Position numbers and translations under genes: made by a program. A stretch of DNA of 64,000 bases from Candidatus Aenigmatarchaeota archaeon (GTDB lineage Archaea; Aenigmatarchaeota; Aenigmatarchaeia; CG10238-14; SpSt-28): the NCBI GenBank assembly GCA_038997165.1, contig JAWBAK010000001.1:192001-256000 (forward strand), in the 5' to 3' direction. Positions within the stretch are counted from its first letter, which is position 1; every line of letters starts with the position of its first letter. The notes beneath the pieces were generated by a model. The model made no database searches. It saw nothing but the letters and a program-made list of their open reading frames with translations, and was not told where the DNA came from. Below, piece after piece: positions 3,280-52,239 of this stretch.

Positions 3280-4047
3280 CTAAATTAGCCAAGAAAACCA
3301 ACTTCTTACTCTTTTTAGATATGCTGTAAATGGTACTTTATAATCTTCTCCAGCTAAATAAGCGGCTAATTTCATAAATTCTATTGCCGCTTTGCTATAA
3401 TCGTTAATTTCTAAATATGTTTTACCTAAAGCTAATGCTTTTTCAAAATCTGAATCAAAAGGTATTGCAGCAATTACTGGCAAATTTGTTAATTCTTCTA
3501 TTTCTCCAATAGTCAATTCATGTACTCTTCCTGTAACTTTATTAACTACAACACCAAGTGGTTTTAATCCTAATTTTTCTGCTACTTCATTTATTTTAAT
3601 AACATCTGTTACTGCAGCTATATTTGGATTTGTAACATATAATATTTCTTTCGAAGCCTTCATAGCACTTACAGCTTCTCTTCCAATTCCAGGTGCGCTA
3701 TCTATTAATACAAAATCGCTATATGGAATTTCTTTTATTACTTTTTCTAATTTTGTAATATCTACATTTTGTAATTCATTAACATCTAATGAGCTTGGAA
3801 TTATTTTTAGGCCACTATCGTGAAAATATATTGCATCTATTACTGTTTTTGTTTCTTCTCTCAATACATGATTTAGAGTTGTTGGACTATAAAACATTCC
3901 AAAATTCATTGCTAGATGTGGAGTAGTTATATTAGCATCTATTATAGTAACGCTTTTTCCTAACTTCACTAAAGCTAAACCAAGATTTGAAGTTACTGTT
4001 GTTTTACCTACACCACCTTTTCCGCTAGCTATCGTTATTATCCTCAT
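3280..4047 (-). CDS. minD: MinD-family ATPase
   Basis: Deviant Walker A SGKGGVGKTT, DSAPG and a C-terminal amphipathic helix. Confidence 0.9.
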   Translation of the reverse strand: MRIITIASGKGGVGKTTVTSNLGLALVKLGKSVTIIDANITTPHLAMNFGMFYSPTTLNHVLREETKTVIDAIYFHDSGLKIIPSSLDVNELQNVDITKLEKVIKEIPYSDFVLIDSAPGIGREAVSAMKASKEILYVTNPNIAAVTDVIKINEVAEKLGLKPLGVVVNKVTGRVHELTIGEIEELTNLPVIAAIPFDSDFEKALALGKTYLEINDYSKAAIEFMKLAAYLAGEDYKVPFTAYLKRVRSWFSWLI

Positions 4048-4061
4048 AAATATTTACCATT

Positions 4062-4892
4062 TTAGTAATTTATATTTTTAATTTTTATCAATTTTTTAGA
4101 TAATTTAAATAACTCCTCTTCTATTATTTTTTTAGAATTCTCTATAAGATTTTCAGAAATATCATATCTATAATTTTTTTTAATTAATTTATTAATTTTT
4201 TCGTTAATTTTTTCATCTATAACTAACTTAGGAAAGTTTTTAAAATCTTTGATAGTTAAAATTGGTTTATTTAATAAAGCTGCATAAAGTAATTCTTTAT
4301 AAAATTTGTTTTTAGAAAAATCAATAACGATATCAACATACTTTAATAACTTTATTAATTCGTTTTTTTCCAATTTTCTTTTTAGGAAATAAATTCCTTT
4401 GGAATTTGATGTATTTAAATCTAAAATCCCATAAATATAAATTTCAAATTCCTTAGATAAAAGTGTCATTATTCCAACAACCTCTAGAGAAATTTTGTCA
4501 CATAAAAACAATACAACTTTTCTATTTTTATTTTCAAAAATTTTTTCTATTTTAACTTCAGGAATATTGTTACTAATAATATATGGAAAATAGATAACGT
4601 TATCAAAAAAGCTTCTTTCAATCCTATAAACATACATTTTCTCTTTATCAATTAAACTTAGTTCATCAATTTTATTTATAACTTTTTCTAAATCTAATTT
4701 TAAATCAGAAAGATTTAAAATAAAATCTAATTCTTTATAATATTTTTCTAATTCACTAAATGGTAATAAAAAAATATTATAATATCTTCTTCTCTCTTCT
4801 GAATCAAAAAGAAAATAGTAAAACTCGAAATTTAAAAATTTTAAAGTTTCAATTAAATCTATATCGTATTCGTCTATTATTCCTATTTTCAT
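4062..4892 (-). CDS. Degenerate GT-B (GT4-like) glycosyltransferase-fold protein
   Basis: MKIGII start and C-terminal ELIKLLKYVDIVID...ELLYAALLNKPIL. Appears paralogous to 5514..6365. Confidence 0.45.
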   Translation of the reverse strand: MKIGIIDEYDIDLIETLKFLNFEFYYFLFDSEERRRYYNIFLLPFSELEKYYKELDFILNLSDLKLDLEKVINKIDELSLIDKEKMYVYRIERSFFDNVIYFPYIISNNIPEVKIEKIFENKNRKVVLFLCDKISLEVVGIMTLLSKEFEIYIYGILDLNTSNSKGIYFLKRKLEKNELIKLLKYVDIVIDFSKNKFYKELLYAALLNKPILTIKDFKNFPKLVIDEKINEKINKLIKKNYRYDISENLIENSKKIIEEELFKLSKKLIKIKNINY

Positions 4893-4901
4893 AAATTAAA
4901 A

Positions 4902-5171
4902 TCATTCCCAAGAAATAAAACCTAACTCTGTAAGTTCCTTAAAAATTTCATCCAAAACTTTTTTAATCATTTCCTTATCCATTTGGGTTCTTTCAGATAG
5001 AATTTCTAATATTTCTTCATACTTTTTTTTACCATCACAATATTTTAATAAACCAACAGCAATGGGATCTATTTGATATAATTTTTCTTTATCAATAGTA
5101 GCATAATAGGTATTTAAATAATTAATTATAGTAAGATTTTCATTTTTTTTAGGCCTTTTTCCTTCAAACAT
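4902..5171 (-). CDS. PqqD / RiPP-recognition-element-like protein
   Basis: 89 aa with LYQIDPIAVGLLKYCDGKKKYEEILEILSE...VLDEIFKELTELGFI, matching the PqqD pattern (CDG, terminal L..GxI). Confidence 0.75.
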   Translation of the reverse strand: MFEGKRPKKNENLTIINYLNTYYATIDKEKLYQIDPIAVGLLKYCDGKKKYEEILEILSERTQMDKEMIKKVLDEIFKELTELGFISWE

Positions 5172-5172
5172 T

Positions 5173-5454
5173 TCACTTTCCTAATCTTTTTCTCAATTCT
5201 TCTAATATTTCTTCATCTGTAACTTTTTGTGCAAATTTCTGTTTTAAATAACATAATTTTGCCTTTCCTACTTTTCTTTGATATATTATTTCTGCTCCTA
5301 ATAATTCATGTAAATATTTTGCTACAGTTATTCTACTATATCCTAGCTCATCTGAAATTTGCTGTATTGTTAGACCTTCTGGATGTTTTCTTAACAAATC
5401 TATTATTAATTTTCTAGCATCTTCTTTTTTCTTTTTTTCCTCTCTTTCCTCCAT
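5173..5454 (-). CDS. Winged helix-turn-helix protein
   Basis: IIDLLRKHPEGLTIQQISDELGYSRITVAKYLHEL followed by the wing RKVGKAKLCY. Confidence 0.85.
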   Translation of the reverse strand: MEEREEKKKKEDARKLIIDLLRKHPEGLTIQQISDELGYSRITVAKYLHELLGAEIIYQRKVGKAKLCYLKQKFAQKVTDEEILEELRKRLGK

Positions 5455-5513
5455 AATATTAAGATAATAAAAAATATTTATATTTATTGTTTAACTTATT
5501 TGTTAACTAATTA

Positions 5514-6365
5514 TTAAATCCTTAATTTTATTTCTATTAATTCTCTTAATTCTTTTTCAAAAATTTTTGCAGAATTTTTATAATCATATTCTTTTGCAAT
5601 TAACCGATTTGCTTCATATTCTTCAAAATTTAGTAATCTTTGAATTTTAGCTAAAAAGTTTCCAAAATTTATATTTGGAGTACCCAAAAAACCATCATTA
5701 GTAATAACTATTTTTTTCATAGCCATTGCTTCTAATACTTCCTTTTTCATATTTTCAATTGCAATTATTAAATTGCTATTCAAATATAATTCTGCTCTTT
5801 CTTTTTTACTTAATTCTCTACTAATGAAAGTAATAAATGGATAAATTTTATTTGAAGTTGCTTGATAGACAATAAAATTTAAATCTTTAATTAATTTTTT
5901 CAATTCTAACATTTTTTCCAAAAATGAAACCAAGCCTGTATCAAAAGAATTTGCTAATATCGTAATTCTATTAATCTTATCAAATTTTTTAAATTTAGAT
6001 TTAAAATTACTAAAAAACTCAAAATCAATAAAATATGGAAAATAAATACAATTTTCTATTTTTTTATTTCTAATCGCATAAAATTCGTAATCAAAAACAT
6101 ATCTTTCTAATTCATTTTCTACAATTTTTATATTAATTGCATAATTGCTTTTAAAATTTATATTTCTATCTATAAAAAGTATTTTAACATCTTCTTGTTT
6201 TATTGCATTTTCAAAATTTAAAGTTTTTATTATTTTTATATTGTTTTCTGGAAAAAATTCTCCAGATTCTTTACTTTTTTCAAATATTACGATTTCATAG
6301 TTAATTAGACTTAAAAATTTTATTATGTCTTCATCTACTTTATCTAAAAGAAATCCTATTTTCAT
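5514..6365 (-). CDS. Degenerate GT4-like glycosyltransferase
   Basis: Likely start MKIGFL at 6365; acceptor-domain motif ELYLNSNLIIA...VLEAMAMKKIVITND. Confidence 0.6.
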   Translation of the reverse strand: MKIGFLLDKVDEDIIKFLSLINYEIVIFEKSKESGEFFPENNIKIIKTLNFENAIKQEDVKILFIDRNINFKSNYAINIKIVENELERYVFDYEFYAIRNKKIENCIYFPYFIDFEFFSNFKSKFKKFDKINRITILANSFDTGLVSFLEKMLELKKLIKDLNFIVYQATSNKIYPFITFISRELSKKERAELYLNSNLIIAIENMKKEVLEAMAMKKIVITNDGFLGTPNINFGNFLAKIQRLLNFEEYEANRLIAKEYDYKNSAKIFEKELRELIEIKLRI

Positions 6366-6378
6366 AAAAATTAAACTA

Positions 6379-6819
6379 TTGATATCAATAATATGTTTAG
6401 TATTAATCTTCATTCTTATTTTATTTATAAAAAATAATTCTGTAAATTATGAAATAAGATATGCTGCTTTTGTTATAGATGGTGATACATTTGTTGACGA
6501 AAAGGGAGAGAAAATAAGATTAATTGGGATCAATGCTCCAGAAATTGGTGAAAAATGTTATGAAGAATCTAAGGCAAAATTAAAAGAAATGATAGAAAAA
6601 AAGTATGTTAAAATAGTTTATGATGTTAAAAAAAGAGATAAATATAATAGGACTCTTGCGTACGTTTTTGTTAACGATTTAAATGTTAATTTAATAATGA
6701 TTAAAGAAGGTTATGCAGTTGTTTATCCAGATAATTTAAATACAAAATTTTTAAAGGAGTTCTATTTTGCAGAAAAATATGCAAAAGAGAATAAAATTGG
6801 TTGTTTATGGAAAGATTAA
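6379..6819 (+). CDS. Thermonuclease (SNase-like) with N-terminal membrane anchor
   Basis: VIDGDTF, IRLIGINAPE, DKYNRTLAYV, EGYA and GCLW motifs. Start is uncertain (TTG 6379 or ATG 6325). Confidence 0.9.
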   Translation: MISIICLVLIFILILFIKNNSVNYEIRYAAFVIDGDTFVDEKGEKIRLIGINAPEIGEKCYEESKAKLKEMIEKKYVKIVYDVKKRDKYNRTLAYVFVNDLNVNLIMIKEGYAVVYPDNLNTKFLKEFYFAEKYAKENKIGCLWKD

Positions 6820-7901
6820 TCCAAAAAATCTTCGTTTTTAATTTTCTCTGGTAAATATGTTTCTGTAACAAATTTTAAACCCTTGCCTGCTAAAGATTCT
6901 AATTCTGCTTTATATTTCTTTTCTATAAATTTATTAATTTCCCTTTGCCAATGTTTCTTCTTAAACCATTCATAATTCAACAATTCATATGCCCTTTTTA
7001 TGTCAACATCTTTAGCTTTTATTGTCCAATTTTTTAATTTATAAGTTTCTATATCTGTCATTGTCAAACCTATAAACTTTGCATCCTTAGTTCCTAATCT
7101 ATCTGAAATATGAGCTAAATTTATAGAACCATATTTTATTACAGAATATATATAAAATCCATAAGGATCGGAATCTGTAAAAACATATACAGGCAAATTA
7201 AACTCTTGATTTAATCTTTGAATCAATCTTCTTGCTCCTCTAGGAGCTTGGCCTTGGGTTGTTAATAATATGCACTTATGTTTTTTCCAAAATTTATCTT
7301 CATGCAATCTTTCCCAGGCAGCGTTTTTCTCAACTACTAAAATAAATTCTGCATCAACTTTTTTAAACTCTATTGCTTCTACATTACTAGGTATTGCCCA
7401 TCCACCACTACCTAATTTACTCCAATCTATTACATCTCCCCTATCCTCTATAATTACATCACCAACTACTCTTCCTCTCGTATCTGCATTTAAGTGAAGC
7501 TGCTCTCTTAATACATTTAAAGTAACTTCTAGATCAACTATACAATTATCACTTTCATCTTGCTCATCAAAAGTATTTTCATTGCTATTTGGTAAAGTTC
7601 TTTTCATCGCATAAAAAGCTTCTCTTAAGCTCGCATGTATATTTTCTTTTAGTAATTCTTTTGCAAAACTAGCAACTAGTAAAGTTTGCATGAATTTCTT
7701 AGCTTTATGTAAATTGAAAAAATCTCTTTCAATTTTTTTATCTCCTAATTTTAAGATAAACTCTTTTTTATCAAATATTACGTTTTTTAAACTTCTTGCA
7801 GGAATAAACATCTTCGGATTTTCCCCTCTATTTATTTGTTCAAGTAAATCTTTTCCTAAACTTTCCAATTTTTCTAATACTTTTTTAATATATTCTGTCA
7901 T
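6816..7901 (-). CDS. top6A: DNA topoisomerase VI subunit A
   Basis: SLREAFY (catalytic Tyr), VVEK and the TOPRIM motif FTDSDPYG. Confidence 0.97.
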   Translation of the reverse strand: MTEYIKKVLEKLESLGKDLLEQINRGENPKMFIPARSLKNVIFDKKEFILKLGDKKIERDFFNLHKAKKFMQTLLVASFAKELLKENIHASLREAFYAMKRTLPNSNENTFDEQDESDNCIVDLEVTLNVLREQLHLNADTRGRVVGDVIIEDRGDVIDWSKLGSGGWAIPSNVEAIEFKKVDAEFILVVEKNAAWERLHEDKFWKKHKCILLTTQGQAPRGARRLIQRLNQEFNLPVYVFTDSDPYGFYIYSVIKYGSINLAHISDRLGTKDAKFIGLTMTDIETYKLKNWTIKAKDVDIKRAYELLNYEWFKKKHWQREINKFIEKKYKAELESLAGKGLKFVTETYLPEKIKNEDFLD

Positions 7902-39706: not shown

Positions 39707-40746
39707 AGGTTTTAATGATAACACCGGAATTTTCTATAAAAGAAACAAAAGGATTAGCAAGATATTCATACGAAATATATAAAAGATTAAAAAGTTTTGT
39801 TGAAATAGAAACTGTATTTAGAAAACATTTTCATAAAGGTTTTTTAGGTTTTATTTTTAGTATTTTCTATCCAAATTTTATAACTTTAGTAAAAGGGAGA
39901 AAATATGATGTAATTCATGCAACTTCTCCAGAATTAGCATTTATTGCATCAATTTTTTATAGAAAAAAACTTATTGTTACCTTTCATGACTTGTTTCCTA
40001 TTACACATTATAAAAAATTAAAATATAAAGTTGGGATATTAACACATTTATTCTCTTATATTATTTGGAAAATCGCAACAAGAGCAAAAATAATTGTTGC
40101 AAATTCATCATTAACAAAAGAGTATATCGATAAAGTTTTTCATAGAAAAAATAATATTGTAGTAATTAGCGAAGGTGTTAATGAAAATATCAAACAAATA
40201 ACTGAAAAAAACCATATATTAACTCTTTGTTTTGTTGGAAACTTATCATATAGAAAAAGAGTTGATGTTGCTATAAAACTATATAGAAAAATTAGCAAAA
40301 AAGAGAAATGTAAGTTAATAATTGTTGGTGGAAAATTAAAATCTTTATATCAAGTAAATTTTAACTTAGATAAAATTAATGAAGAAAATATTGAAATCTA
40401 TGATAAAGTTAATGAGGAAAAATTAATAGAAATTTACAGTAAATCTCATTTTTTAATTTTTTCATCGATAATAGAAGGTTTTGGTTTACCGATTTTAGAA
40501 GCTGTTAGATGCAAGACTTTGCCTATTACTTTTAAATTTTCAGAAATCCCAAAAGAAGTGAAAAAATTTTCTATAGAGTGTAAGGATTTAGATGATGCTG
40601 CAAAAAAAATAATTAATTTATGGAAAAATAAAAAAAGATTTGAATATATCGCTAATAAATTTTATAAATTATCTTTAAATTTTGATTGGGAAAAAACATG
40701 TAGCAAATACTTAAAAATATATAAAAAGGTTGCTAATTATGGGTAA
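39703..40746 (+). CDS. GT4-family glycosyltransferase
   Basis: TFHD, VGNL..RK, EGFGLPILEA and FDWE. Confidence 0.93.
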   Translation: MKVLMITPEFSIKETKGLARYSYEIYKRLKSFVEIETVFRKHFHKGFLGFIFSIFYPNFITLVKGRKYDVIHATSPELAFIASIFYRKKLIVTFHDLFPITHYKKLKYKVGILTHLFSYIIWKIATRAKIIVANSSLTKEYIDKVFHRKNNIVVISEGVNENIKQITEKNHILTLCFVGNLSYRKRVDVAIKLYRKISKKEKCKLIIVGGKLKSLYQVNFNLDKINEENIEIYDKVNEEKLIEIYSKSHFLIFSSIIEGFGLPILEAVRCKTLPITFKFSEIPKEVKKFSIECKDLDDAAKKIINLWKNKKRFEYIANKFYKLSLNFDWEKTCSKYLKIYKKVANYG

Positions 40747-41740
40747 AATTGAAGAAATTATAAAAATTTTAAAAGAGAGGTTTAACCTTAGTGAAGAAAA
40801 AATTAGAGAGGAAATTAAAGAAAAACTATATGAATTTGGTGGACTAATAAGCGAAGAAGGTGCTGCCATGTTAGTAGCAAGAGAATATGGAATTGACATT
40901 AGAGAAATTAAAACTTTTTCATTTTTAAGCGAATTGGTTAGTGGAATGAGAAATGTAAATGTAAGAGTTAAAGTCTTTAAATCATTACCCCTAAAAGAAT
41001 TTGAAAGAAAAGATGGAACAAAAGGATATGTTAAAATATTTTTAGTTGGAGATTCCTCAGATATTGCAAGATTAGTTTTTTGGAATGAATTTGCTGAAGA
41101 AGCAGAGAATATGAAAATTAAAGATGGTGATATTTTAAAAATATATAATGCAAGAACAAAAGAAAATATCTTTGGAGAAATTGATATAATAGTTGATAAA
41201 AATACTTATATCGAATTTGATAATAAAGATGATTTACCTAGCATAGATGTTTTATTAGAAAAATATTCAAAAGATAAATATCAAAGATTAGAATCTTCAT
41301 TAGATTCTATAGGTTATTATGAAGTTGTTGGAATTATCTCAGCAATATACGGAAGTAATTTTTTCTTTAAAATTTGTCCAATATGTGGAAATAAAGTTGG
41401 TAAAAAAGAAGAAAAATATTTTTGTGATTTACATGGTGAAGTAGAGCCAAAAAATTCGCTTTTTTTAAGATTTGAGGTAAATACTCTTAATGGAAATTTG
41501 AGAGCTGTAGCATTTAGGGAAGTTGCAGAAAAAATTGTAGAAATTAAGACAGAAGAGCTAGAAAAATTTGAAAATTTAAAAGAATTCTTAGAAAACTTAT
41601 TACTAGGTAAAATCATATTAATAAGAGGAAGAGCTAGAAAAAACAAATTTTTAAATGTTATAGAATTGGTTGTTAATGAAGTTGAAAATGTCAATATTGA
41701 AAAAGAAATTGAAAAATTAATTCAATCTATAGAAAATTAA
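40739..41740 (+). CDS. rpa: Replication protein A large subunit (OB folds + Zn finger)
   Basis: [22 protein letters not shown] and CPIC...CDLHG. Confidence 0.9.
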
Positions 41741-41745
41741 ATATT

Positions 41746-42702
41746 ATGGAAGAAGAGAAAATTTCGCTTAAAGATATTAAAGGTATTGGACCAAAAATTT
41801 TGAAAAGATTAGAAGAATTAAAAATTAGTGATCCTATGATTATAGCAATGAGTAATCCAAAAGAATTATCTGCGATATTAGATATTGGTGAAGAAAAAGC
41901 AAAAGAAATTATCGAAAATGTAAGAGAAGCTCTAGGTTTTAAGTTAGAAACTGCTGATAAAGTTTTAGAAAGAAGAATGAAAATGAAAAAAATTACAACT
42001 TCTTCAAAAGCATTAGATGAATTGCTTGGTGGTGGTATTCCTACACAAGCAATAACAGAAGCTTTTGGAATGTTTGGTAGTGGAAAAACTCAGCTTGCAT
42101 TTCAGCTTGCAATTAATGTTCAATTACCAGAAGAACAAGGTGGATTAGAAAGAGCTTGTTTGTTTATAGATAGTGAAGGTACATTTAGTCCAGAAAGAAT
42201 AGTAGAAATATCGAAAAATAGAGGATTAGATGCTGATAAAATTTTAAAAAATATTTATGTTGCAAGAGCTTATAGCAGTGAACATCAAATACTTTTAGTT
42301 GAAAAAGCCGCTGAAATTATTAAAGAAAAAAACATCGGATTAATAATAGTAGATTCTATAACATCTCATTTTAGAGTTGATTATATAGGAAGGGGGGAAT
42401 TAGCAGAAAGACAACAAAAATTAAACAAACACTTACATCAGCTACAAAGATTAGCAGATGCATTTAATTTGGCTGTTTATATTACAAATCAAGTAATGGC
42501 AAGACCAGATATTATATTCGGTGATCCGACACAACCTGTTGGTGGTCACGTTTTAGCACATATCTCCTTTTATAGAATTTATTTAAGGAAATCGAAACAA
42601 AATTTAAGAATAGCAAGATTGGTTGATGCACCTAATTTACCTGAAAGAGAAGTTGTCTTTCAAATAACTGAAAAAGGTATTGAAGATTATGAAGAAAAAT
42701 GA
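41746..42702 (+). CDS. radA: DNA repair recombinase RadA
   Basis: [28 protein letters not shown] and TNQV. No intein. Confidence 0.98.
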
Positions 42703-43304
42703 TTATATATAGAGGTGCTGAAGCCATAATAGAAAAGATAGATGAAAACACAATTGTGAAAAAAAGAATAGAAAAAAAATATAGATTAAGAGAAATAGAT
42801 GAAAAAATAAGAAAGGAAAGAACAAAAAAAGAAGTTAAGTTTTTAAGGGAAGTTAGAAGATTTGGAATTAATGCTCCTAAAGTTTTAGAAGTTAGTGATT
42901 TCGAGTTTAAAATGGAATATATAAATGGAAAAAAATTAAAAGATATTTTAAATAAAGAAAATTTTAATTTTTTTGCAGAAGAAATAGGAAAGATTGTTGC
43001 GAATTTACATTTACATAATATAGTTCATAATGATTTAACCTTATCTAACATGATTTATTATGAAAATAAAATTTATTTAATAGATTTTGGTCTAGCAAAT
43101 TATTCTGTTTCAATTGAAAATAAAGCAGAAGATGTTTTAACACTTTATTATTCAATAAAATCTCTTTTCCCAGAAATATATGAAGATTTTTTTAGAATTT
43201 TTAAAGATACTTACACTAAGTTATATCCTAATGGTAATAATGTTATAGAAAGAATGAAAGAAATATTAAAAAGAGGAAGATATTCGATAAGAAATGGTAA
43301 CTAA
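42699..43304 (+). CDS. bud32: KEOPS kinase Bud32
   Basis: GAEA, HNDLT.SN, IDFGL and RGRY. Confidence 0.95.
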
Positions 43305-43566
43305 AAAATCTCTTGTAGAAGTATTATTTAAAGATAAGCCTTTAAAAGTACTTTTAGTATTATCTGATGGTATTCCAAAAAATATTACACAAATATATAA
43401 AAAAGTAAGAACAACTTATTCACATACGTTGAACATTCTTAAAGTTTTTTATGAGTTAGAATTAATAGAATTTGAAAAAATGGGAAGAGATAAAGTTGTT
43501 AGATTATCAAAAAAAGGAGAAAAAATTATTGAAATTATTAAGAAATTTTTAGGATATTTAGATTAG
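43294..43566 (+). CDS. Winged-helix DNA-binding protein
   Basis: NITQIYKKVRTTYSH...LIEFEKMGRDKVVRLSKKG. Confidence 0.85.
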   Translation: MVTKKSLVEVLFKDKPLKVLLVLSDGIPKNITQIYKKVRTTYSHTLNILKVFYELELIEFEKMGRDKVVRLSKKGEKIIEIIKKFLGYLD

Positions 43567-43691
43567 TTTCCAATATTTTTTATGAAAATTCGGAATTTTT
43601 TTATGAACTTTCAAATATTTTTTATGAACTTTCCAATATTTTTTATGAAAATTCGGAATTTTTTTATGAACTTTCAAATATTTTTTATGAA
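43566..43691. repeat. Six tandem 21-bp repeats (ABC-ABC), iteron-like
   Basis: Units (G/C)TTTCCAATATTTTTTATGAA, AATTCGGAATTTTTTTATGAA and CTTTCAAATATTTTTTATGAA each occur twice. ATGAA recurs at 43582, 43603, 43624, 43645, 43666 and 43687. Confidence 0.95.
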
Positions 43692-43927
43692 ATCTCAGAA
43701 AGATATCAAAGTAATAAAGTAATAATAGGGAAAAAACTATAAAGAATAAATTTTTAATTAATTTTTAGTTTTTTAAATACTATAACAGTGTAATATTTTA
43801 GTTATAATTAAAAAGAATTTAACAAGAAAAATAAGAAGAGTTAAATAGAGTTATAAGAATATAAAAAATAATAAATTATTATAATAAAATTATTACTCAA
43901 AAAGAAATTGGAAAAATCATAAAAAAT
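43566..43927. other. Candidate replication origin (iterons + AT-rich tract + inverted repeat copy)
   Basis: Inverted 19/21 copy ATTGGAAAAATCATAAAAAAT at 43907..43927. This is the largest non-coding gap in the window and lies inside a replication gene cluster. Confidence 0.5.
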
Positions 43928-43945
43928 CAACTAATTTAATTATTT

Positions 43946-44212
43946 ATGAGGAGGGGAAGACCATCAAAAAGATTTGAGATATATAAATTAATAGAAGAAT
44001 ATTTTAAAGAAAATCCATTTCCTTCCAACATAAATAGAATTTTGAGGTATGTTTATGAAAAAACAGGACAAAAATATAGTTGGAACACATTTAAAAAGTA
44101 TTTAGAAGAATTGGCTAAGTTAGATAAAATTAAAAGAATAAAATTACCTCATTCTAAAATAAAAGATAAAGAAGGTTTAACATTATATTACTTAGAAATA
44201 AAAAATGAATAG
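43946..44212 (+). CDS. AT-hook + winged-helix protein
   Basis: N-terminal RRGRP; recognition helix SWNTFKKYLEEL and a wing ending LYYL. Confidence 0.8.
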   Translation: MRRGRPSKRFEIYKLIEEYFKENPFPSNINRILRYVYEKTGQKYSWNTFKKYLEELAKLDKIKRIKLPHSKIKDKEGLTLYYLEIKNE

Positions 44213-45179
44213 AATATTTGAGTTAATGAAAAAGGGTTATTTTGTTCAAGATCCTCAAATACTTTCATTAATGGATGATGAGGAATTCAAAAAATTTTTA
44301 CTTTTTTTACCAAAATCAAACGAACCAAGAATTTTAAAAAAAGAGGATGTTATTACTTTTTTGCAAAAAATAAGAAGAGAAATTTCTATTAGAATTTTCG
44401 AGCCACAAATAAAACAAAAAATATCGAACCTAGATTTATTAAATATTTTAAGAGAAAGATATAATTTTTTATCATCAATTATAAAAAAGAAGCTACTATT
44501 TTTTAATTTACTTTCTATAAATAAAATTTCAAAAAAATATAGAACATTTTCTCTTATAGGTATGGTTTACGAGATTAATGGTAAAAAAATTACAATAGAT
44601 GATTTATCATCGAAAATAGATATTTGGATAGAGGATGAAGAAAAATTAAAATTAATAGAGGAAGATTGCGTTATTGGGGTCAAATGTTATTGGAAAAACG
44701 ATGAAATTTATGTTAATGAAGTTATTTTTCCAGAGTTTGAAGAAAAAAACAATTTAGAAGAAGTAAAAGAGTTTAGAATAGGAATTTTTAATAAAGATAT
44801 TGATATTGATGTCGATATCGTTATACAGCTGGATAAAGAAAACAAGATTTTAAAAAATAAAGTATATGTAAACTCTTCATTTCCTGTTCACCAAATTTAT
44901 GTTAATAACTCATTAATATTGATAATAAATCTTAGACATGTAAAATTTAATATAAACAAATTCTTAAAGTTAAGATTAGTAACTTCTAAATCACAAGAAA
45001 TACTAAATTTTGGTGGAGATTTTTTCTTAATAAAAAATAAACCAAGTTTAATTATAACTTTAAATTCTAATAAAGAAGAAATAAATAAGATAGATGATAT
45101 TTTTTTAGTTAATTTAACTAATTTATCAGAAAACAACTATTTTATCGATTTAAAGGAAGAAAAAATTTTCAAAGTTTAA
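44205..45179 (+). CDS. PolD DP1-like / B-subunit-like protein with eroded phosphoesterase domain
   Basis: LRERYNFLSSII...SLIGMVYE...IDDLSSKI...EDCVIGVK...EVIFPE resembles the DP1 OB region. The SDxH, GNHD and GHxH motifs are absent. Confidence 0.7.
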   Translation: MNRIFELMKKGYFVQDPQILSLMDDEEFKKFLLFLPKSNEPRILKKEDVITFLQKIRREISIRIFEPQIKQKISNLDLLNILRERYNFLSSIIKKKLLFFNLLSINKISKKYRTFSLIGMVYEINGKKITIDDLSSKIDIWIEDEEKLKLIEEDCVIGVKCYWKNDEIYVNEVIFPEFEEKNNLEEVKEFRIGIFNKDIDIDVDIVIQLDKENKILKNKVYVNSSFPVHQIYVNNSLILIINLRHVKFNINKFLKLRLVTSKSQEILNFGGDFFLIKNKPSLIITLNSNKEEINKIDDIFLVNLTNLSENNYFIDLKEEKIFKV

Positions 45180-45234
45180 ATTAACTATAATAAAGGATAG
45201 AAAAAAATATTTGAAAGAAGAATAAAAAAATATC

Positions 45235-47949
45235 ATGAATACTAAAATTTTTCTTTTGGATGTTGATTATGATGTTGTTGATGATAAACCGATAATTAGA
45301 ATTTTTGGAAAAGATGAGAGTGGCAATTCTATAACTGTTTTTGTTAGAGATTTTTTCCCATATTTTTATGTAAAAGTTAAAGATGAAGAAAAGTTTTTAG
45401 AGTTCTTAGAAAAAAAATTTAAAAATTTAATAGTTAAAGTCGATACTGTAGAGAAATTCTTACCCATAGGTTACCAAGAGGAAAGAACAAAATTATTTAG
45501 AATATTTTTAAAGAATCCATCAAAAGTTCCACTAATTAGAGAGGAATTAATGTTACAAGATTTCGTTGAAAATACGTACGAAGCCGATATTCTTTTTAAG
45601 TATAGATTTATGGCAGATAAAAATCTTAGTGGCTGTAAATGGTATGAAGTAGAAGGAATTTTTGTTAATAATACAAATGTTGTATTTACAAATAAAAAAA
45701 TAGAGGCATCAAATATTAAAGAGATAGATTATCATGAAATTCCTAAGTTTAAGATTTTATCAATTGATATAGAAGTTGCCAATAAAGAAGGTATTCCAGA
45801 TCCAAAAATTCATCCAATTAGTATAATTTCATTAGCTTTTTATCCAGAATACAATGAAAAGAGAAATCTAGTTTTAATTTCTAAAAAAGTAAGCGTAGAT
45901 TTAGAATATGTTTTATCGTTTGAGAACGAGAAAAAAATGTTAGAAAGTTTTATTAATATAATTAAAGATTATGATCCAGACTTTATAATTGGATATAATA
46001 TTAACAATTTTGATATCCCTTATATAATTGAAAGATTAAGACAAAACAAAATAAAACCATATTTAGGAAGAGCAAAAAAAGTTGCAAAAAGTCAAAGAAT
46101 AAGCGAAGAGAGATATAAAAATTCTATTGTAGGGAGAGTAATCATAGATTTTTATGATATTTTAAAAGAATTTTCTAAAAAAGGTATGTTTAAGACAAAA
46201 AGATTAGGTTTAGGTGATGTAGCAAAAGTATTAATAGGTAGAGGAAAAGAAGATGTAGAACATAGTGAAATAATCAAACTATGGAATGGAGATGAAAAAG
46301 ATTTAGTAAGGCTTATAAATTATGCAAAAACTGATGCTGAATTAGTTTTAGAAATAATGCTTAGTAGAGATTTTATTTCTCAATATATAGAAATTTCTAG
46401 GTTAAGTGGTTTATTATTACAAGATACTTTATCTGGTTCTGAATCTTCCAGAATAGAACAATTTCTTTTAAAAGAATTTAACAAAAATAATTTTGTAATT
46501 CCTAACAAACCAAACAAAAGAGAATTAAAAGAAAGAGAAAAACAAGAAGTTAAAGGTGCTATAGTTTTAGAACCAAAAATAGGTTTGCACGAATTTGTTG
46601 CTTATCTCGATTTTAAATCTCTATATCCAAGTATAATAATAGAATATAACATTTGTCCAACAACTTATTTAAAAAATAGAAAAGAAGGAGTGGATTTAAT
46701 TATATCTCCAATTAACACATATTTTGTTTCAAAAAACGTTAGAGAGGGAATATTTCCAAGAGTTTTAAAGAGATTAATAGAAGAAAGAGATAAGATTAAA
46801 AAGATGATGAAAGATGAAAAAGATCCAAACAAAAAGATTTTATTGGAAGCAAAACAATTGGCACTAAAATTATTGGCAAACGCATTTTATGGATATACTG
46901 GATTTTTAAAAGCTAGATTTTTTGTAGCTGATATAGCAAATACTATAACAGCTTATGGAAGATATTGGATTACTAATGTTAAAAAATTTGCCGAAGAAAT
47001 GGGATATGAAGTTGTTTATGGTGATACAGATTCTATAATGGTAAAAACAAATGCAAAAAGTTTGGAAGAGGCTTTCAAAATTGGAACAGAATTAGAAAAA
47101 TTAATTAATTCAAAAACACCTCAAAACATTAAAATGAAAATAGAAGGAATAATGAAAAAAATTCTTTTTGTAACAAAAAAGAAGTATGTTGGTTATTTAT
47201 TTGAAAGTGAAAAAGAAGATGGCAAAATAGTAATGAAAGGAATTGAAACTATAAGAAGGGATTGGTGCGAATTAGTTTCGGAAACTTTATCAAAAGTTAT
47301 AGAAATTTTATTGATTACTGGAAGCGAAAAAGAAGCTTTTGAATATGTTAGAGAGGTTTTTAGAAAGTTAAGAAATAATGAAATAGATGTAGAAAAGCTT
47401 GCTATAATTAAATCAATTTCAAGACCTCTTAACAAATATAAGGGTCAGCAACCGCATATAGAGCTTGTCAAAAAAATGATACGAAGAGGGGATCCAAACA
47501 TTCCGGGAGTTGGAGATAGAGTTAGTTATATTATAGTCGCCGGTCCACAAAAAATTGTTGAAAGAGCAGAGAGCGTTGAATATGTAAAAAAATACAAAAT
47601 ACCAATTGATGCTGAATACTATATTTATCATCAGTTATTACCACCTCTAGAAAGAATATTTAATGCTATTGGAATAACATCTTCTCAATTTATTACAGGT
47701 ACTAAACAAAAATCTATTATTGGAATTTTACTTCAAAACGGAAATGGAGCTAATAAAAATCATTCTAATGCAGGTATTAAACAAGGATTTATTAATGAAA
47801 TAAATATAAAGGAGTTTGTTGGATTCGTGTGTAGTAATTGTAATAGCGTTTATAAAAGAATGCCATTAAGTGGAATATGTAATTTGTGTAATGGAGAAAT
47901 TGTTTTTTATTCTGCTAATGCGAAATCAAAGATTATTTCATTAGATTAA
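45235..47949 (+). CDS. polB: Family B DNA polymerase with C-terminal Zn finger
   Basis: Exonuclease motifs DIE, YNINNFD and YAKTD; polymerase motifs DFKSLYPS, KLLANAFYG and YGDTDS; C-terminal CSNC...CNLC. Confidence 0.98.
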   Translation: MNTKIFLLDVDYDVVDDKPIIRIFGKDESGNSITVFVRDFFPYFYVKVKDEEKFLEFLEKKFKNLIVKVDTVEKFLPIGYQEERTKLFRIFLKNPSKVPLIREELMLQDFVENTYEADILFKYRFMADKNLSGCKWYEVEGIFVNNTNVVFTNKKIEASNIKEIDYHEIPKFKILSIDIEVANKEGIPDPKIHPISIISLAFYPEYNEKRNLVLISKKVSVDLEYVLSFENEKKMLESFINIIKDYDPDFIIGYNINNFDIPYIIERLRQNKIKPYLGRAKKVAKSQRISEERYKNSIVGRVIIDFYDILKEFSKKGMFKTKRLGLGDVAKVLIGRGKEDVEHSEIIKLWNGDEKDLVRLINYAKTDAELVLEIMLSRDFISQYIEISRLSGLLLQDTLSGSESSRIEQFLLKEFNKNNFVIPNKPNKRELKEREKQEVKGAIVLEPKIGLHEFVAYLDFKSLYPSIIIEYNICPTTYLKNRKEGVDLIISPINTYFVSKNVREGIFPRVLKRLIEERDKIKKMMKDEKDPNKKILLEAKQLALKLLANAFYGYTGFLKARFFVADIANTITAYGRYWITNVKKFAEEMGYEVVYGDTDSIMVKTNAKSLEEAFKIGTELEKLINSKTPQNIKMKIEGIMKKILFVTKKKYVGYLFESEKEDGKIVMKGIETIRRDWCELVSETLSKVIEILLITGSEKEAFEYVREVFRKLRNNEIDVEKLAIIKSISRPLNKYKGQQPHIELVKKMIRRGDPNIPGVGDRVSYIIVAGPQKIVERAESVEYVKKYKIPIDAEYYIYHQLLPPLERIFNAIGITSSQFITGTKQKSIIGILLQNGNGANKNHSNAGIKQGFINEINIKEFVGFVCSNCNSVYKRMPLSGICNLCNGEIVFYSANAKSKIISLD

Positions 47950-47984
47950 TATATTAAAATTTTAAAACTAAATAATTTAGAAAT

Positions 47985-48548
47985 ATGAATATAAAAGAAA
48001 TAATTAGTCTAGTAGATGAAACAATTTTTAATTTTATTAGTTTTTTCGATTTTTCTAAAGTATATTTTTTATCATTTTTAAGTTATTATTTTTTTTATCT
48101 AATATTTTTGATTTTTGCAATTTATATTTATTTTTTTGAAAGAAAAACAAAAATTCTAAATTTGTTAATTTTTTTATCTATTTTTGGTTTTTTAATAATT
48201 TATCTTATAAAGTATGCAGTAAAAAGAGAAAGACCATATGGTATAATAGAAAAGATAGATTATTCTTTCCCTTCTTCTCATTCATATTTTGCGATTTTAA
48301 TTATTTTATTTTCATATTTCTATCTTCGAAACTATATTTTCAAATCGTTATTTATTCTCTTCGGTCTTTTTTCAATTTTTTCTATTATAATTCTTAAAAT
48401 TCATTATTTCTCTGATGTAATCTTTTCAATTTTTCTCTCTTTATTTTTATTCTATCTTTTTAATAATAAAGATTTTTTGATAAAATATATAGAAAAGCTA
48501 CAAGAAGTAAAGAAAAAGAAATTAAACTATTTGAAAAAAACAAAATAA
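47985..48548 (+). CDS. PAP2-family membrane phosphatase
   Basis: K...KRERP, SFPSSH and HYFSDV. Confidence 0.92.
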   Translation: MNIKEIISLVDETIFNFISFFDFSKVYFLSFLSYYFFYLIFLIFAIYIYFFERKTKILNLLIFLSIFGFLIIYLIKYAVKRERPYGIIEKIDYSFPSSHSYFAILIILFSYFYLRNYIFKSLFILFGLFSIFSIIILKIHYFSDVIFSIFLSLFLFYLFNNKDFLIKYIEKLQEVKKKKLNYLKKTK

Positions 48549-49896
48549 GAGAAATAGATACGTAAATTAATAATGCAATTACTTCAAAATTTTTAAATCT
48601 ATTTATAAACAGATTTATAAGAACAAAAAAACTTAAAGATAGGAAAAGAGCTGAGAAGGAAAAGTAAATTTTTTGAAGATAAAATAAGAAGAAAAGAGTT
48701 GAAATGAACGTATAAAATATAAGTCTAAAGTCAATAGTTTTTTTATTTAAAAAAGTAAAGAAAAAGAGTATTGAAAAAAAGATTGGTATAGTTAGCGGAA
48801 AGAATAAAGATAAAATTATAAAAGGTAAGAAATAAAACAAACTTAAATCTTTAGTTTTTAAAAAGAAAAAAATAAATAAAATAAGAAATGCAATTAAGAA
48901 AATAATATCTAATTTTAAAATTTTAAAATATCTTTCTATTTTTATTTCTTCAGTTTTTAGAACTTGTATAGCTATTGTTTTTTTTAGTTCATTAGGATTT
49001 TCTAAGTTTATTAATAAAATAGAAATATAATTTTCATAGTTTCTATATGGTAAGGGATAGCTTAAAATAGTTATATTGTTAATCTTTATAACTAATTTGG
49101 CATCATAATACTTCTCCAGTTGAACTAATTTAAAAGGAACTTCTTTAAGATTTTCTAATAATATTTTACTACCATTTTGATTTATTTTAAATGTTATGTT
49201 TACGAAGTTAATTGCAACAGGATAAAAATATCTGATTTTAAAGTCAAAATCTTCTATAAAATCTTGATTAAATAAATATTTTCTAACAGTTACATTTTTT
49301 TCTCCTATAATAACTTCATCAAAAATTTTATATAATTCATTTATATGAAGCTCTTTATCCATTAATTTTACAGTTTCGTTTTCTTTTTCTAAATCTCTTT
49401 CTAAATAAAAATCTAATTTTCCAGGAGTTGTTAATAACAAATATATTTTCTTATCGTATGGTAAAATTATTTTATCAAAATCTATAAGAAAATAATTATA
49501 ACCTAACAAATTAAGTATTTTTAAATTTTTTTCGTTATTTTCTAAAACAATTCTTTCTAGATTTATTGGTTTAAAATATGTTGTTTTTTCAATTTCTATT
49601 ACTTCTATGTCAAAATCTTCAAGTGCAGTACATCTAACAATTTTATTATCTACTATAATGAAAAATGTTTGATTTGGTTTTAGCTCTTTTTTTGCATTTT
49701 CAAAATCTTCAATAGTTTTTATATCTATATTGTTTATAGAAGATATTTTACTTCCAATTTTTATGATTTCTTCGCATTCAACATTTCTAAAATCTTTAAT
49801 TACAATTTCTGTTGTAGGTTTAGATAAAAAAAGAAAAAGTAATGGAATGATTAATGAAAGTACTAGTATTAAAATTTTTGATAAATTTTCTTTCAT
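48460..49896 (-). CDS. Membrane protein with PDZ-like domain, SecD-like topology (divergent)
   Basis: One N-terminal TM, PDZ-like IGSKISSINNIDIKTIEDF, a large external domain and about 5-6 C-terminal TMs. Confidence 0.45.
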   Translation of the reverse strand: MKENLSKILILVLSLIIPLLFLFLSKPTTEIVIKDFRNVECEEIIKIGSKISSINNIDIKTIEDFENAKKELKPNQTFFIIVDNKIVRCTALEDFDIEVIEIEKTTYFKPINLERIVLENNEKNLKILNLLGYNYFLIDFDKIILPYDKKIYLLLTTPGKLDFYLERDLEKENETVKLMDKELHINELYKIFDEVIIGEKNVTVRKYLFNQDFIEDFDFKIRYFYPVAINFVNITFKINQNGSKILLENLKEVPFKLVQLEKYYDAKLVIKINNITILSYPLPYRNYENYISILLINLENPNELKKTIAIQVLKTEEIKIERYFKILKLDIIFLIAFLILFIFFFLKTKDLSLFYFLPFIILSLFFPLTIPIFFSILFFFTFLNKKTIDFRLIFYTFISTLFFLFYLQKIYFSFSALFLSLSFFVLINLFINRFKNFEVIALLIYVSISLILFFSNSLISFSLLLVAFLYILSKNLYY

Positions 49897-49899
49897 ATT

Positions 49900-52239
49900 T
49901 TAGTTAAAACTAACCTTATATATTTTAACTTCTGGATTATCAAACACTAACTCAAATTTTTCTAAACCAATTCCATTAAGAAAGTACATTTTTGTAAACA
50001 TTGAATTCATTATTTTTTCATCAGCTAAAAATATATATCTAAAACTAGGATCAATAATAACCATTGCATTAACATCTGTTTTTCTTCCAAATTCTTCTTG
50101 ATTAATTATTATTGGTTTATTATCTTGGTAATAGACTAGATATTTTATTCTTTCTTTATTCATAAAATATGGTACTAATACAGTTTGATTGTTTATATTT
50201 TCTGTTTTTATACTTATATCTATTTCTATTATTCTTTCACCAACATTTGTTCTTGTAGAGTAAACTAATATACCCTTATTTATATCTGATTTCTGCGTAT
50301 TTAAAATAAAAATAGAATACATATTACCTTCACCTTTCTTATTTATATAAAAAAAGTTTTCAATTCCTTTTTGTGTATAGCATATTGAATTTTCTGGATA
50401 GTATTTTCTCAAACAAGAGGAAAAATAATATGGCCAATAATATTTAAATATTAAATCTTGGCTTGCAATAAAATAAATTTTATTAATTGTAATATTACAG
50501 ATACTTTCATTAAATAAATTTGGAAACCTTTCTTTTACTTTTTTACAATCTTCTTCAGAAATTCTAGTATATTTTTTTAATAATTCATATGCTTCTGTTT
50601 CATTAGAAGTTGTTAGGATTCTTCCCATATCTTGAATTCTTATATCGTGATTATAAGGAATGCACGAATCCCAACCACAATGGGCACCATCTGCATGAAC
50701 TTTAACATTTGCATATCCAGCAATTATATGACCAGGATCCCACCAGGTTGCAACTAATGTATATTCGTCTGAGTTATTTTTAATAAAATCAAGTGCAGCC
50801 CTCCAATTTTCATTTATTTCCATTCCTTTCATGGCGTTTGCGATTTTAAATGAATTATCTAAATAATAAAATATAAAAATAGCTAGAAAAGAAAAGAAAA
50901 ATAAATTAAATATTTTTAAAACTTTTTGTGATTTTTGAAGATTTTCGATTATTATAAAATGTAAAGTAAATATAGAATAGGGTGCAACAATAGCTAAAGA
51001 TGTTGCAAACAATAAAGAAAATCTAATTCCTTGAGAAATTAAATATAGAGAATATATAAACCAAGCAATTAAAAGAATTTCTTTCCAATTTAGAATTTTT
51101 TTAAAGAAAAAATTATAGACAAATGTCGGAAAAATTAAAAAGGATAAAAGAAATGGTATTAAACCTACTCTAGATGCCGCCTCTTTAATTCCTTCTATGC
51201 TAAACGTATTTAAAGGTTGTAGTTCTGCAACAGAAATATTTACTAATAAGGCGTATTTTAAACCACCTTTTATTGCTAAATAAATTTGCCATAACATAGT
51301 TGTTATTGGACGTGGTAAAGATGTATTAAAAATTCTCTCTATCAAAAATGTTAACAATTCAGTGAAAAATATTAACGCACCAATTACAATAGAAACACCT
51401 AAAATTTTTATTAAATAATTTTTAGAATTTGTTTTTTTTACTTTTCTTTCCTCATTTATATAGACATCAAAAACAACCGATAAAAGTATAAAACCTATAT
51501 ATAAAATTAAAAATAAACCAATTATAAAAATAAAGTAATATGCAGAATTCCAGTTCCATGCAAATAAAATGTAAGAAATCGAAGCAAAAATAAAATAAGG
51601 TGCTAGTTTTCTTATGGCAAGTAATGTACTTGGAATACTTATATTTATAAATTCAATTGTATTTAAACTCTTTTCTATTAATAAAATAGTTGAAAGTAAA
51701 ACTAAATAAGTATAAAAAACGTATACAACATCGCTATCTACATATCCTGCCATCGAGACAATTAAAAAAGCTGGACTAAATGTTATTAAAAACGCAGCGA
51801 GTAGTCCAGCTAAGTTATTTTTAGAAATAATTTTAGCTAAAAAAAATGCTGGAATTGCTGTTAAAGCTGAGAAAATTGCAATAAAATATACAGAATACTT
51901 TTCTAGAGAAATTTGTATAAAATTTCTTATTAATAGGTAAGTTAAGGCAATTGTATAACTGTATCCATCGTAATATATTGGTCTTCCTGGGGGAAAATAA
52001 CTTTTTTCATCCCAAGTAGATAGTACAAACTTTTTTTCTCTATCCCATCTTTCTACTATATCTTTTGCATGCCTAAAAAACCACCAAGGATCATAATCTA
52101 ATGGAATATCTACATATGCAGTTTTCAATCTTACAAAAAAAGCAAAATAGATAATTAAAATTAATAACAAAGGAATAACCAAATAGTTAATTTTTTTAAC
52201 TATATTTTCTTTGATTTTTTCTATATTTATCAGATTCAT
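49900..52239 (-). CDS. aglB: Oligosaccharyltransferase AglB/STT3
   Basis: DYDPWW, GYVDSD, SVAELQP and WWDPG. Confidence 0.95.
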   Translation of the reverse strand: MNLINIEKIKENIVKKINYLVIPLLLILIIYFAFFVRLKTAYVDIPLDYDPWWFFRHAKDIVERWDREKKFVLSTWDEKSYFPPGRPIYYDGYSYTIALTYLLIRNFIQISLEKYSVYFIAIFSALTAIPAFFLAKIISKNNLAGLLAAFLITFSPAFLIVSMAGYVDSDVVYVFYTYLVLLSTILLIEKSLNTIEFINISIPSTLLAIRKLAPYFIFASISYILFAWNWNSAYYFIFIIGLFLILYIGFILLSVVFDVYINEERKVKKTNSKNYLIKILGVSIVIGALIFFTELLTFLIERIFNTSLPRPITTMLWQIYLAIKGGLKYALLVNISVAELQPLNTFSIEGIKEAASRVGLIPFLLSFLIFPTFVYNFFFKKILNWKEILLIAWFIYSLYLISQGIRFSLLFATSLAIVAPYSIFTLHFIIIENLQKSQKVLKIFNLFFFSFLAIFIFYYLDNSFKIANAMKGMEINENWRAALDFIKNNSDEYTLVATWWDPGHIIAGYANVKVHADGAHCGWDSCIPYNHDIRIQDMGRILTTSNETEAYELLKKYTRISEEDCKKVKERFPNLFNESICNITINKIYFIASQDLIFKYYWPYYFSSCLRKYYPENSICYTQKGIENFFYINKKGEGNMYSIFILNTQKSDINKGILVYSTRTNVGERIIEIDISIKTENINNQTVLVPYFMNKERIKYLVYYQDNKPIIINQEEFGRKTDVNAMVIIDPSFRYIFLADEKIMNSMFTKMYFLNGIGLEKFELVFDNPEVKIYKVSFN

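Follow-up and report, generated by a model that had tools for sequence, protein, structure and literature searches.

Can a family B DNA polymerase (PolB) of an archaeon be built on the plan of the eukaryotic replicases, with a zinc module at its C-terminus docked on a DP1 homologue that has lost its nuclease? The question is raised by two adjacent genes in a stretch of 64,000 nucleotides (nt) from a Candidatus Aenigmatarchaeota archaeon (assembly GCA_038997165.1, contig JAWBAK010000001.1, positions 192,001 to 256,000 of the forward strand), which we call the window and to which all coordinates refer. The upstream gene encodes a DP1-like protein of 324 amino acids (aa), and the downstream gene a PolB of 904 aa whose tail resembles Zn-III, a zinc ribbon of DP2, the partner of DP1 in PolD, the usual replicase of archaea. 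The original prediction, made from the sequence of this region, had proposed a PolB plus dead-DP1 heterodimer similar to the eukaryotic replicases, and this proposal is now supported by the homology of both parts, the loss of the DP1 active site, the lack of DP2, the adjacency of the two genes and a model of the complex. We consider that the pair is, in all likelihood, the replicative (or co-replicative) polymerase of a member of the Aenigmatarchaeota (DPANN) that lost DP2, in which PolB is docked via Zn-III on a dead DP1. The features of the two open reading frames (ORFs), and of a second PolB of the same genome, are the following.

44205..45179, + strand: DP1-like ORF, 324 aa, recognized by profile and fold; N-terminal helical domain, long helix, OB fold and a reduced, phosphoesterase-like beta sandwich devoid of metal ligands
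45235..47949, + strand: PolB ORF, 904 aa, starting 55 nt after the DP1-like ORF
45235..47706, + strand: PolB body, residues 1-824, with intact exonuclease and polymerase motifs
47707..47730, + strand: motif QKSIIGIL, residues 825-832, similar to a PCNA-interacting peptide (PIP), placed by the tail alignment
47731..47820, + strand: low-complexity linker of ~30 residues; homologues differ in its length and sequence
47821..47949, + strand: DP2 Zn-III-like Cys4 ribbon (C866, C869, C882, C885; YKRMPLSG loop), short C-terminal strand and stop codon
Contig C1 of the same genome, ~16 kb before the window (locus L002:1426-3870), - strand: second PolB, with a canonical C-terminal PIP box

The DP1-like protein and the C-terminal tail of the PolB

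The relationship of the 324-aa protein to DP1 is evident from its central region. The DP1 equivalog NF003120 of NCBIfam matches residues 77-201, which include the OB region, with an E value of 9.7e-6, and the comparison of the family profile with four canonical DP1s using hhalign gave 99.1% (E 1.3e-18) over 125 columns that cover the long helix and the OB fold. A profile made from eight members of the family was compared with 1.84 billion representative proteins, and it recovered 399 of them at E <= 1e-3 and 127 at E <= 1e-10. The Pfam content of the family was analyzed in 52 of 150 listed representatives; the members of 300-360 aa are mostly without a Pfam match, many of those of 377-415 aa show DNA_pol_E_B (PF04042) and/or Metallophos, and those of 527-596 aa are canonical DP1 with an OB and a full DNA_pol_E_B domain (4/4). 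For the 324-aa protein itself, Pfam gives a sub-threshold OB match alone, with neither PF04042 nor Metallophos, and the family profile found among the PDB sequences only a chance-level match to ribosomal protein S8 (E 0.049). Fold searches and hhalign were needed because the sequence profile alone fails to reach the solved DP1 structures. The AlphaFold2 (AF2) model of the protein, obtained with an alignment of eight rows, has a predicted local distance difference test (pLDDT) of 89 and a predicted template modelling score of 0.78. The top match of this model in Foldseek is the DP1 of P. abyssi (E 7.3e-13), followed by the B subunits of Pol epsilon, delta, alpha and zeta. A second comparison, carried out with VIA-align and without Foldseek against 48,161 representative chains, returned DP1 or B subunits in all of its top ten positions (Z 12.4-16.9; root mean square deviation 3.8-4.8 over 236-261 residues, covering the range 55-324 of the model), and isolated OB folds came next with Z ~10. 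The protein is thus predicted to have a two-domain core that includes an OB and a phosphoesterase-like fold.

The active site of DP1 has been lost from this protein. In a MAFFT alignment of 18 family members that includes canonical DP1, phosphoesterase motif I is substituted, a deletion has removed the stretch with motifs II and III, and no His is present in motifs IV and V (we take the names I-V to be the usual ones for these motifs). None of the five calcineurin-like phosphoesterase metal-ligand motifs of active DP1 is kept in the 324-aa protein, which contains only two His in total. From these losses it can be concluded that, judged by its sequence, the 324-aa protein is a nuclease-dead, shrunken DP1. 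The family is under constraint, given that 55 columns are invariant across eight members with identities down to 39%.

The PolB is a complete enzyme in which the DNA_pol_B domain (PF00136, 9.3e-119) and the exonuclease domain (PF03104, 6e-40) are recognized by Pfam, and the motif residues, which we take to be those of Exo I-III and of polymerase motifs A, B and C, are all present and invariant in 31 aligned homologues. The motif QKSIIGIL is located where canonical archaeal PolBs end, and the second PolB of the genome, of 814 aa and without a zinc tail, carries its C-terminal PIP box (QKSLHQFF) at the equivalent place. The canonical PIP box has the consensus Qxx[ILM]xx[FY][FY], from which QKSIIGIL departs by its aliphatic residues at positions 7 and 8; binding of PCNA is possible, since in the alignment the motif occupies the place that the C-terminal PIP has in other archaeal PolBs.

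The ribbon that follows the linker (FVCSNC...GEIVF, residues 864-891, 47824..47907) shows the pattern CxxC-12-CxxC, and its four Cys together with L878 and G880 are invariant in the 31 PolB homologues. The tail matches positions 1041-1069 of 1125 in the NCBIfam DP2 model NF003103 (E 2.1e-4), and its PDB matches at E <= 0.01 are three distinct DP2 sequences only, for instance residues 1120-1149 of 6hms_B, the DP2 of P. abyssi (E 5.8e-4), in which the loop FRRPPLNG aligns with the YKRMPLSG loop placed between the two Cys pairs of the PolB. These matches identify the ribbon as the Zn-III module of DP2. The helices that flank the zinc ribbon of DP2 are absent here: the ribbon is preceded by the ~30-residue linker and followed by 13 residues, there is no segment in the tail long enough for a helical bundle, and the tail has only four Cys. 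In PolD, Zn-III docks at the interface between the OB and phosphoesterase (PDE) domains (PMC6355029), and a Zn-III peptide of 20 residues binds DP1 with nanomolar affinity according to work cited in the same paper; it is therefore plausible that the helix-less ribbon is a self-sufficient docking module.

These comparisons agree with what the original prediction had described for both genes, that is, a DP1-like N-terminal and OB region followed by a short C-domain devoid of phosphoesterase metal ligands in the upstream gene (44205..45179), and an intact PolB that continues through a PIP-like motif (47707) and a linker into a DP2-type Zn finger. Its caveat, that the DP2 flanking helices looked absent or short, was correct.

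Absence of DP2, conservation of the gene pair and the predicted complex

The genome comprises 652 kb in 4 contigs, with a completeness of 94.5%, the stretch analyzed has a G+C content of ~24%, and its closest protein relatives carry the NCBI name Candidatus Aenigmatarchaeota. A separate, active DP1 or DP2 was searched for in this genome and none was found: the DP2 N-terminal family PF03833 and the DP1 phosphoesterase family PF04042 gave 0 matches, and the full-length DP2 and DP1 models matched only the PolB tail and the 324-aa ORF, respectively. The same searches were positive in three control genomes that carry PolD. DP2 is very likely absent from the genome.

The distribution of the pair was analyzed in 121 genomes of the phylum, the genome under study included. 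PF04042 is detectable in 18 of them, and in none of the seven other genomes of the family to which the organism belongs; the open frames that match PF04042 are either of ~460-520 aa with full-length PDE matches or of ~350-440 aa with partial ones. A profile of the short form of the DP1-like protein finds a match in 93 of the 121 genomes. Among the 30 best related loci, the DP1-like gene is followed directly downstream and on the same strand by a PolB gene in 29; the exception is a locus (L025) in which the contig ends ~250 nt after the DP1-like match, and for two loci (L036 and L039) the position of the DP1-like gene was taken from the profile match, given that single-sequence tblastn missed it. 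Across the Aenigmatarchaeota a graded decay of DP1 was observed, from forms of ~460-520 aa with a full PDE domain, through forms of ~380-415 aa that keep parts of motifs I, IV and V, to forms of ~300-360 aa, the 324-aa protein among them, with no PDE sequence detected. The shrinkage of the PDE domain goes together with the loss of the helices of the C-terminal domain (CTD), which in PolD contact the PDE domain.

A structural model of the pair was obtained from the full DP1-like chain (alignment of 8 rows), PolB residues 840-904 (alignment of 31 homologues) and a zinc ion. The complex score was 0.88 (0.88, 0.88 and 0.87 in the individual runs), as compared with 0.01 for the best control; the mark of 0.88 is reached by 116 of 157 solved complexes and by 2 of 215 mismatched pairs. 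Between runs, at least 98% of the contacts are the same, and the pLDDT of the partners is at least 82. On the DP1-like side, the predicted interface includes residues 70-86 (a strand and the long helix), 119-137 and 153-154 (OB) and 263-270 (C-domain); on the side of the PolB tail it includes residues 874-880, which form the K-R-M-P-L-S-G loop, 888-891 and 899-904. In the model the last six residues of the PolB pair with residues 72-76 of the DP1-like protein, and the zinc ribbon is predicted to sit at the junction of the OB and C-terminal domains, as in the OB/PDE docking of PolD.

According to the mechanism that we propose, a PolB endowed with its own proofreading exonuclease has kept just the minimal part of DP2 required to dock on DP1, namely Zn-III and its basic K-R-x-P-L loop. 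Placed after the PIP-like motif and the flexible linker, the ribbon would dock on the DP1 descendant encoded immediately upstream, in a groove that separates the OB fold from what remains of the phosphoesterase domain; this descendant has lost all its nuclease ligands and around half of that domain. We infer that the dead DP1 would serve as a B subunit with no catalysis of its own, a scaffold or an adaptor for other parts of the replisome, as occurs in Pol alpha, delta and epsilon.

Several points weigh against this interpretation. Structures of DP1-DP2 and of B-subunit/CTD complexes have already been solved and may have been learned by the predictor, so that the high complex score may reflect likeness and is not a proof of binding; the alignment of the DP1-like protein was shallow (8 rows), the prediction included a zinc ion and the calibration had none, and binding of this particular pair of proteins is a prediction. 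No similarity of sequence to PDE domains could be detected in the C-terminal part of the DP1-like protein, as hhalign ends at column 201 and PF04042 is not found, and for this reason its PDE origin rests on the predicted fold and on the intermediate members of the family. The lack of DP2 was observed in a genome of 4 contigs that is 94.5% complete. Finally, the genome encodes a second, canonical PolB, and either of the two enzymes may do the bulk of replication.

The winged-helix gene and the 21-bp repeats upstream of the pair

The DP1-like gene is preceded by a small gene and by a set of repeats, and other genes for replication and repair lie before it in the same + strand run, forming with the operon a compact replication and recombination neighbourhood. 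The features of this region are as follows.

40730..41740, + strand: gene for an RPA-like protein (Rep_fac-A_C, 4.2e-9)
41746..42702, + strand: probable RadA-like recombinase gene
42699-43304, + strand: ORF that looks like a small Bud32-type kinase
Within 40730-43566, + strand: 90-aa winged-helix gene, upstream of the operon
43567..43700, no strand assigned: about six phased 21-bp repeats with the core TTTTTTATGAA; six copies at 21-nt spacing, or 6.2 copies of period 21 by Tandem Repeats Finder (TRF)
43900..43927, no strand assigned: single inverted repeat copy (28 nt; 86% complementarity with 43617-43644), placed ~20-45 nt before the start codon of the 88-aa ORF
43946..44212, + strand: 88-aa ORF, predicted winged helix, recognized by its AF2 fold and conserved position

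The 88-aa ORF is separated from two small ORFs by an AT-rich spacer of 380 nt, and a scan of positions 40000-50000 with Rfam detected no RNA family. The stop of the 88-aa ORF overlaps the start of the DP1-like gene by 8 nt (ATGAATAG). Its product begins with MRRGRP, presumably an AT-hook-like motif, and the AF2 model (pLDDT 84) shows the H-H-H-strand-strand topology of a winged helix. The Pfam TBPIP/Hop2 winged-helix model matches 12 of 14 members of the 88-aa family (best 1.3e-5). The fold matches, none as strong as E 1e-3, correspond to PadR/Fur-type regulators and to the Hop2 winged helix; a profile search of the PDB gave nothing below E 0.6, and Foldseek nothing at E <= 1e-3. The fold is predicted to be a generic winged helix, and its matches do not separate a role as a polymerase subunit from a role as a regulator.

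The position of this gene is conserved in part of the phylum. In 22 of the 30 related loci it immediately precedes the DP1-like gene, and in the sample of 121 genomes there are 32 places with a match at E <= 1e-20, distributed in 31 genomes, which cover all of families f1 (7/7 plus the genome under study), f3 (23/23) and f5 (1/1). When the two profile listings were compared, 31 of the 32 strong places abut a DP1-like match, the exception being a genome (G090) that has no DP1-like match. In another family of the same order (f2), matches were obtained in 3 of 10 genomes with E 0.002-0.008, and most other families lack the gene yet keep the pair of DP1-like protein and PolB. Genome G013 carries the winged-helix/DP1-like pair twice, each time on another contig.

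Arrays of repeats with a period of 19-23 and at least 2.5 copies were detected by TRF upstream of the homologous 88-aa gene in 11 of 21 related regions, one of which gave no TRF record. Four related loci (L012, L013, L017 and L023), which belong to more than one genus, show the core word TTATGAA repeated every 21 nt, and TTCATAA is present within the last 50 nt before the start codon in 8 of the 21 upstream regions. The original prediction had placed the polymerase beside a candidate origin, and this is not established, given that the repeats are at least as operator-like; we do not endorse the origin reading because the best match in a search for Orc1/Cdc6 lies on contig C2, away from the operon, and the GC skew in the window follows the gene strand, with no clear switch at 43.6 kb. 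The repeats are a candidate for either an operator array or an iteron-type origin.

The 88-aa protein is probably a regulator, with the repeats as its operator, and could act as an autoregulator of the polymerase operon. It has to be considered too that it could be a third, DNA-binding and translationally coupled subunit of the holoenzyme, docking on the B-subunit homologue in one sub-clade, in a manner comparable to the winged-helix N-domain of the third subunit of Pol delta on p50, or to the winged helix of Rpa2 on PolD. The 8-nt overlap, the position upstream of the DP1-like gene in 22/30 loci and the location next to a DP1-like match in 31/32 strong places are in favor of this role, and the structures that the DP1-like model resembles include solved complexes in which a winged helix is bound to p50 (3e0j) or to PolD (9f2a). 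The gene, however, is restricted to the sub-clade of f1, f3 and f5 and is weak or absent in f2 and in most other families where the DP1-like/PolB pair persists, the fold matches of its product are mainly transcription regulators, and the conserved phased repeats with a promoter-proximal inverted copy upstream fit an autoregulator; for these reasons we regard a third subunit as unlikely. If it were true, the holoenzyme would be eukaryote-like with three subunits, and the phased 21-bp repeats in front of its operon would be binding sites of its own.

Other readings of the pair and its relation to known polymerases

Two other readings concern the pair itself. In the first, the DP1-like protein would be a decaying relic of PolD with no binding partner, and the ribbon of the PolB a generic zinc ribbon that could serve, for example, to bind DNA. 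This reading draws on the heavy erosion of the phosphoesterase domain, which has no Pfam match, on the contact of Zn-III with the DNA minor groove in PolD, where it is also reported to line the nascent duplex (PMC6355029), and on the statement that these motifs resemble many other Zn-finger proteins in HHpred searches (PMC7544198). Against it, the family is under clear constraint, with 55 invariant columns, is present in 93 of 121 genomes and lies beside the PolB in 29 of 30 loci; moreover, the K-R-x-P-L loop that contacts DP1 is kept, L878 and G880 are invariant, and the interface prediction is strong as compared with the controls, so that we consider this reading improbable. The second, a normal PolD in which the dead DP1 partners a DP2 encoded elsewhere and the PolB ribbon either competes or is unrelated, could appeal to a genome that is not closed (4 contigs, 94.5% complete), but it is ruled out within that completeness because the searches were negative here, where the DP2 model matches only the PolB tail, and positive in the controls, and it becomes most improbable given that DP2 is reported absent from most of the phylum (PMC7544198, PMC12680538) and that a PolD with a nuclease-dead DP1 would be without proofreading.

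The docking of a PolB on a dead DP1 in these archaea has precedents. The original prediction left in doubt whether such a pairing had been noted before; it is already known for Aenigmatarchaeota from two publications (PMC7544198, PMC12680538). In the first of these (Kazlauskas 2020, NAR, PMC7544198), a PolB of Aenigmarchaeota named B6-aenigma1 is described with a single C-terminal Cys4 motif that is closest to Zn-III of DP2, in organisms where DP2 is absent and DP1 inactive, and it is proposed that PolB replaced DP2 in these archaea. Table S4 of that paper includes a contig with a 336-aa DP1 (3687-4719) and, starting 60 nt after it, a B6 PolB of 887 aa (4779-7476). The pair described here comes from the same phylum and shares with B6-aenigma1 the single Zn-III-like Cys4, the lack of DP2, the inactive DP1, its short form and the adjacency of the genes (here 324 aa and a gap of 55 nt), and nothing essential differs from what is reported there; the assignment of this PolB to B6 rests on these sequence features and not on phylogeny. 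In the second publication (Nat Ecol Evol 2025, PMC12680538), the Aenigmatarchaeota PolB is said to have a "degenerate", shorter DP2 CTD, and the phylum to be without DP2 but with DP1; using AlphaFold 3 and yeast two-hybrid assays, binding of DP1 to the PolB that bears the CTD was reported for both clades, and no binding to canonical PolBs. For those pairs there is two-hybrid evidence, whereas the pair of the window is known from in-silico support. The main text of PMC7544198 mentions neither the upstream winged-helix gene nor the repeats, and a search of it for the term 'winged helix' gave 0 occurrences.

The pair can also be compared with solved polymerases of two kinds. As in archaeal PolD (P. 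abyssi, 6hms and 9f2a), the small subunit would be formed by an N-domain, an OB and a PDE-like domain, with the basic loop of Zn-III at the OB/PDE junction; in contrast with PolD, the genome lacks the double-psi-barrel core of DP2, the nuclease of DP1 is dead, its PDE domain has around half the size, and the CTD helical bundle is missing. As in the eukaryotic Pol alpha, delta and epsilon (4y97, 5vbn and 6tny), a PolB would be tied by a C-terminal metal module to a nuclease-dead DP1 homologue, and the fold of the latter matches the B subunits with Z 14-16.5. The eukaryotic CTDs have two metal modules, CysA and CysB, together with a helical bundle, whereas the PolB tail described here has a single Cys4 ribbon and lacks helices, and the B-subunit homologue is ~100-150 residues shorter than the eukaryotic B subunits.

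The significance of such a pair was already drawn in print in 2020 and 2025, and the window therefore adds a clean example from a nearly complete genome and not a discovery. To that example this analysis adds the graded shrinkage of DP1, the joint loss of the PDE domain and the CTD helices, and the winged-helix gene of one sub-clade with the repeats before the operon. The pair would represent a living archaeal analogue of the eukaryotic replicase design, in which a zinc module that derives from DP2 ties a PolB to a dead DP1, and as such it bears on the origin of Pol alpha, delta and epsilon.

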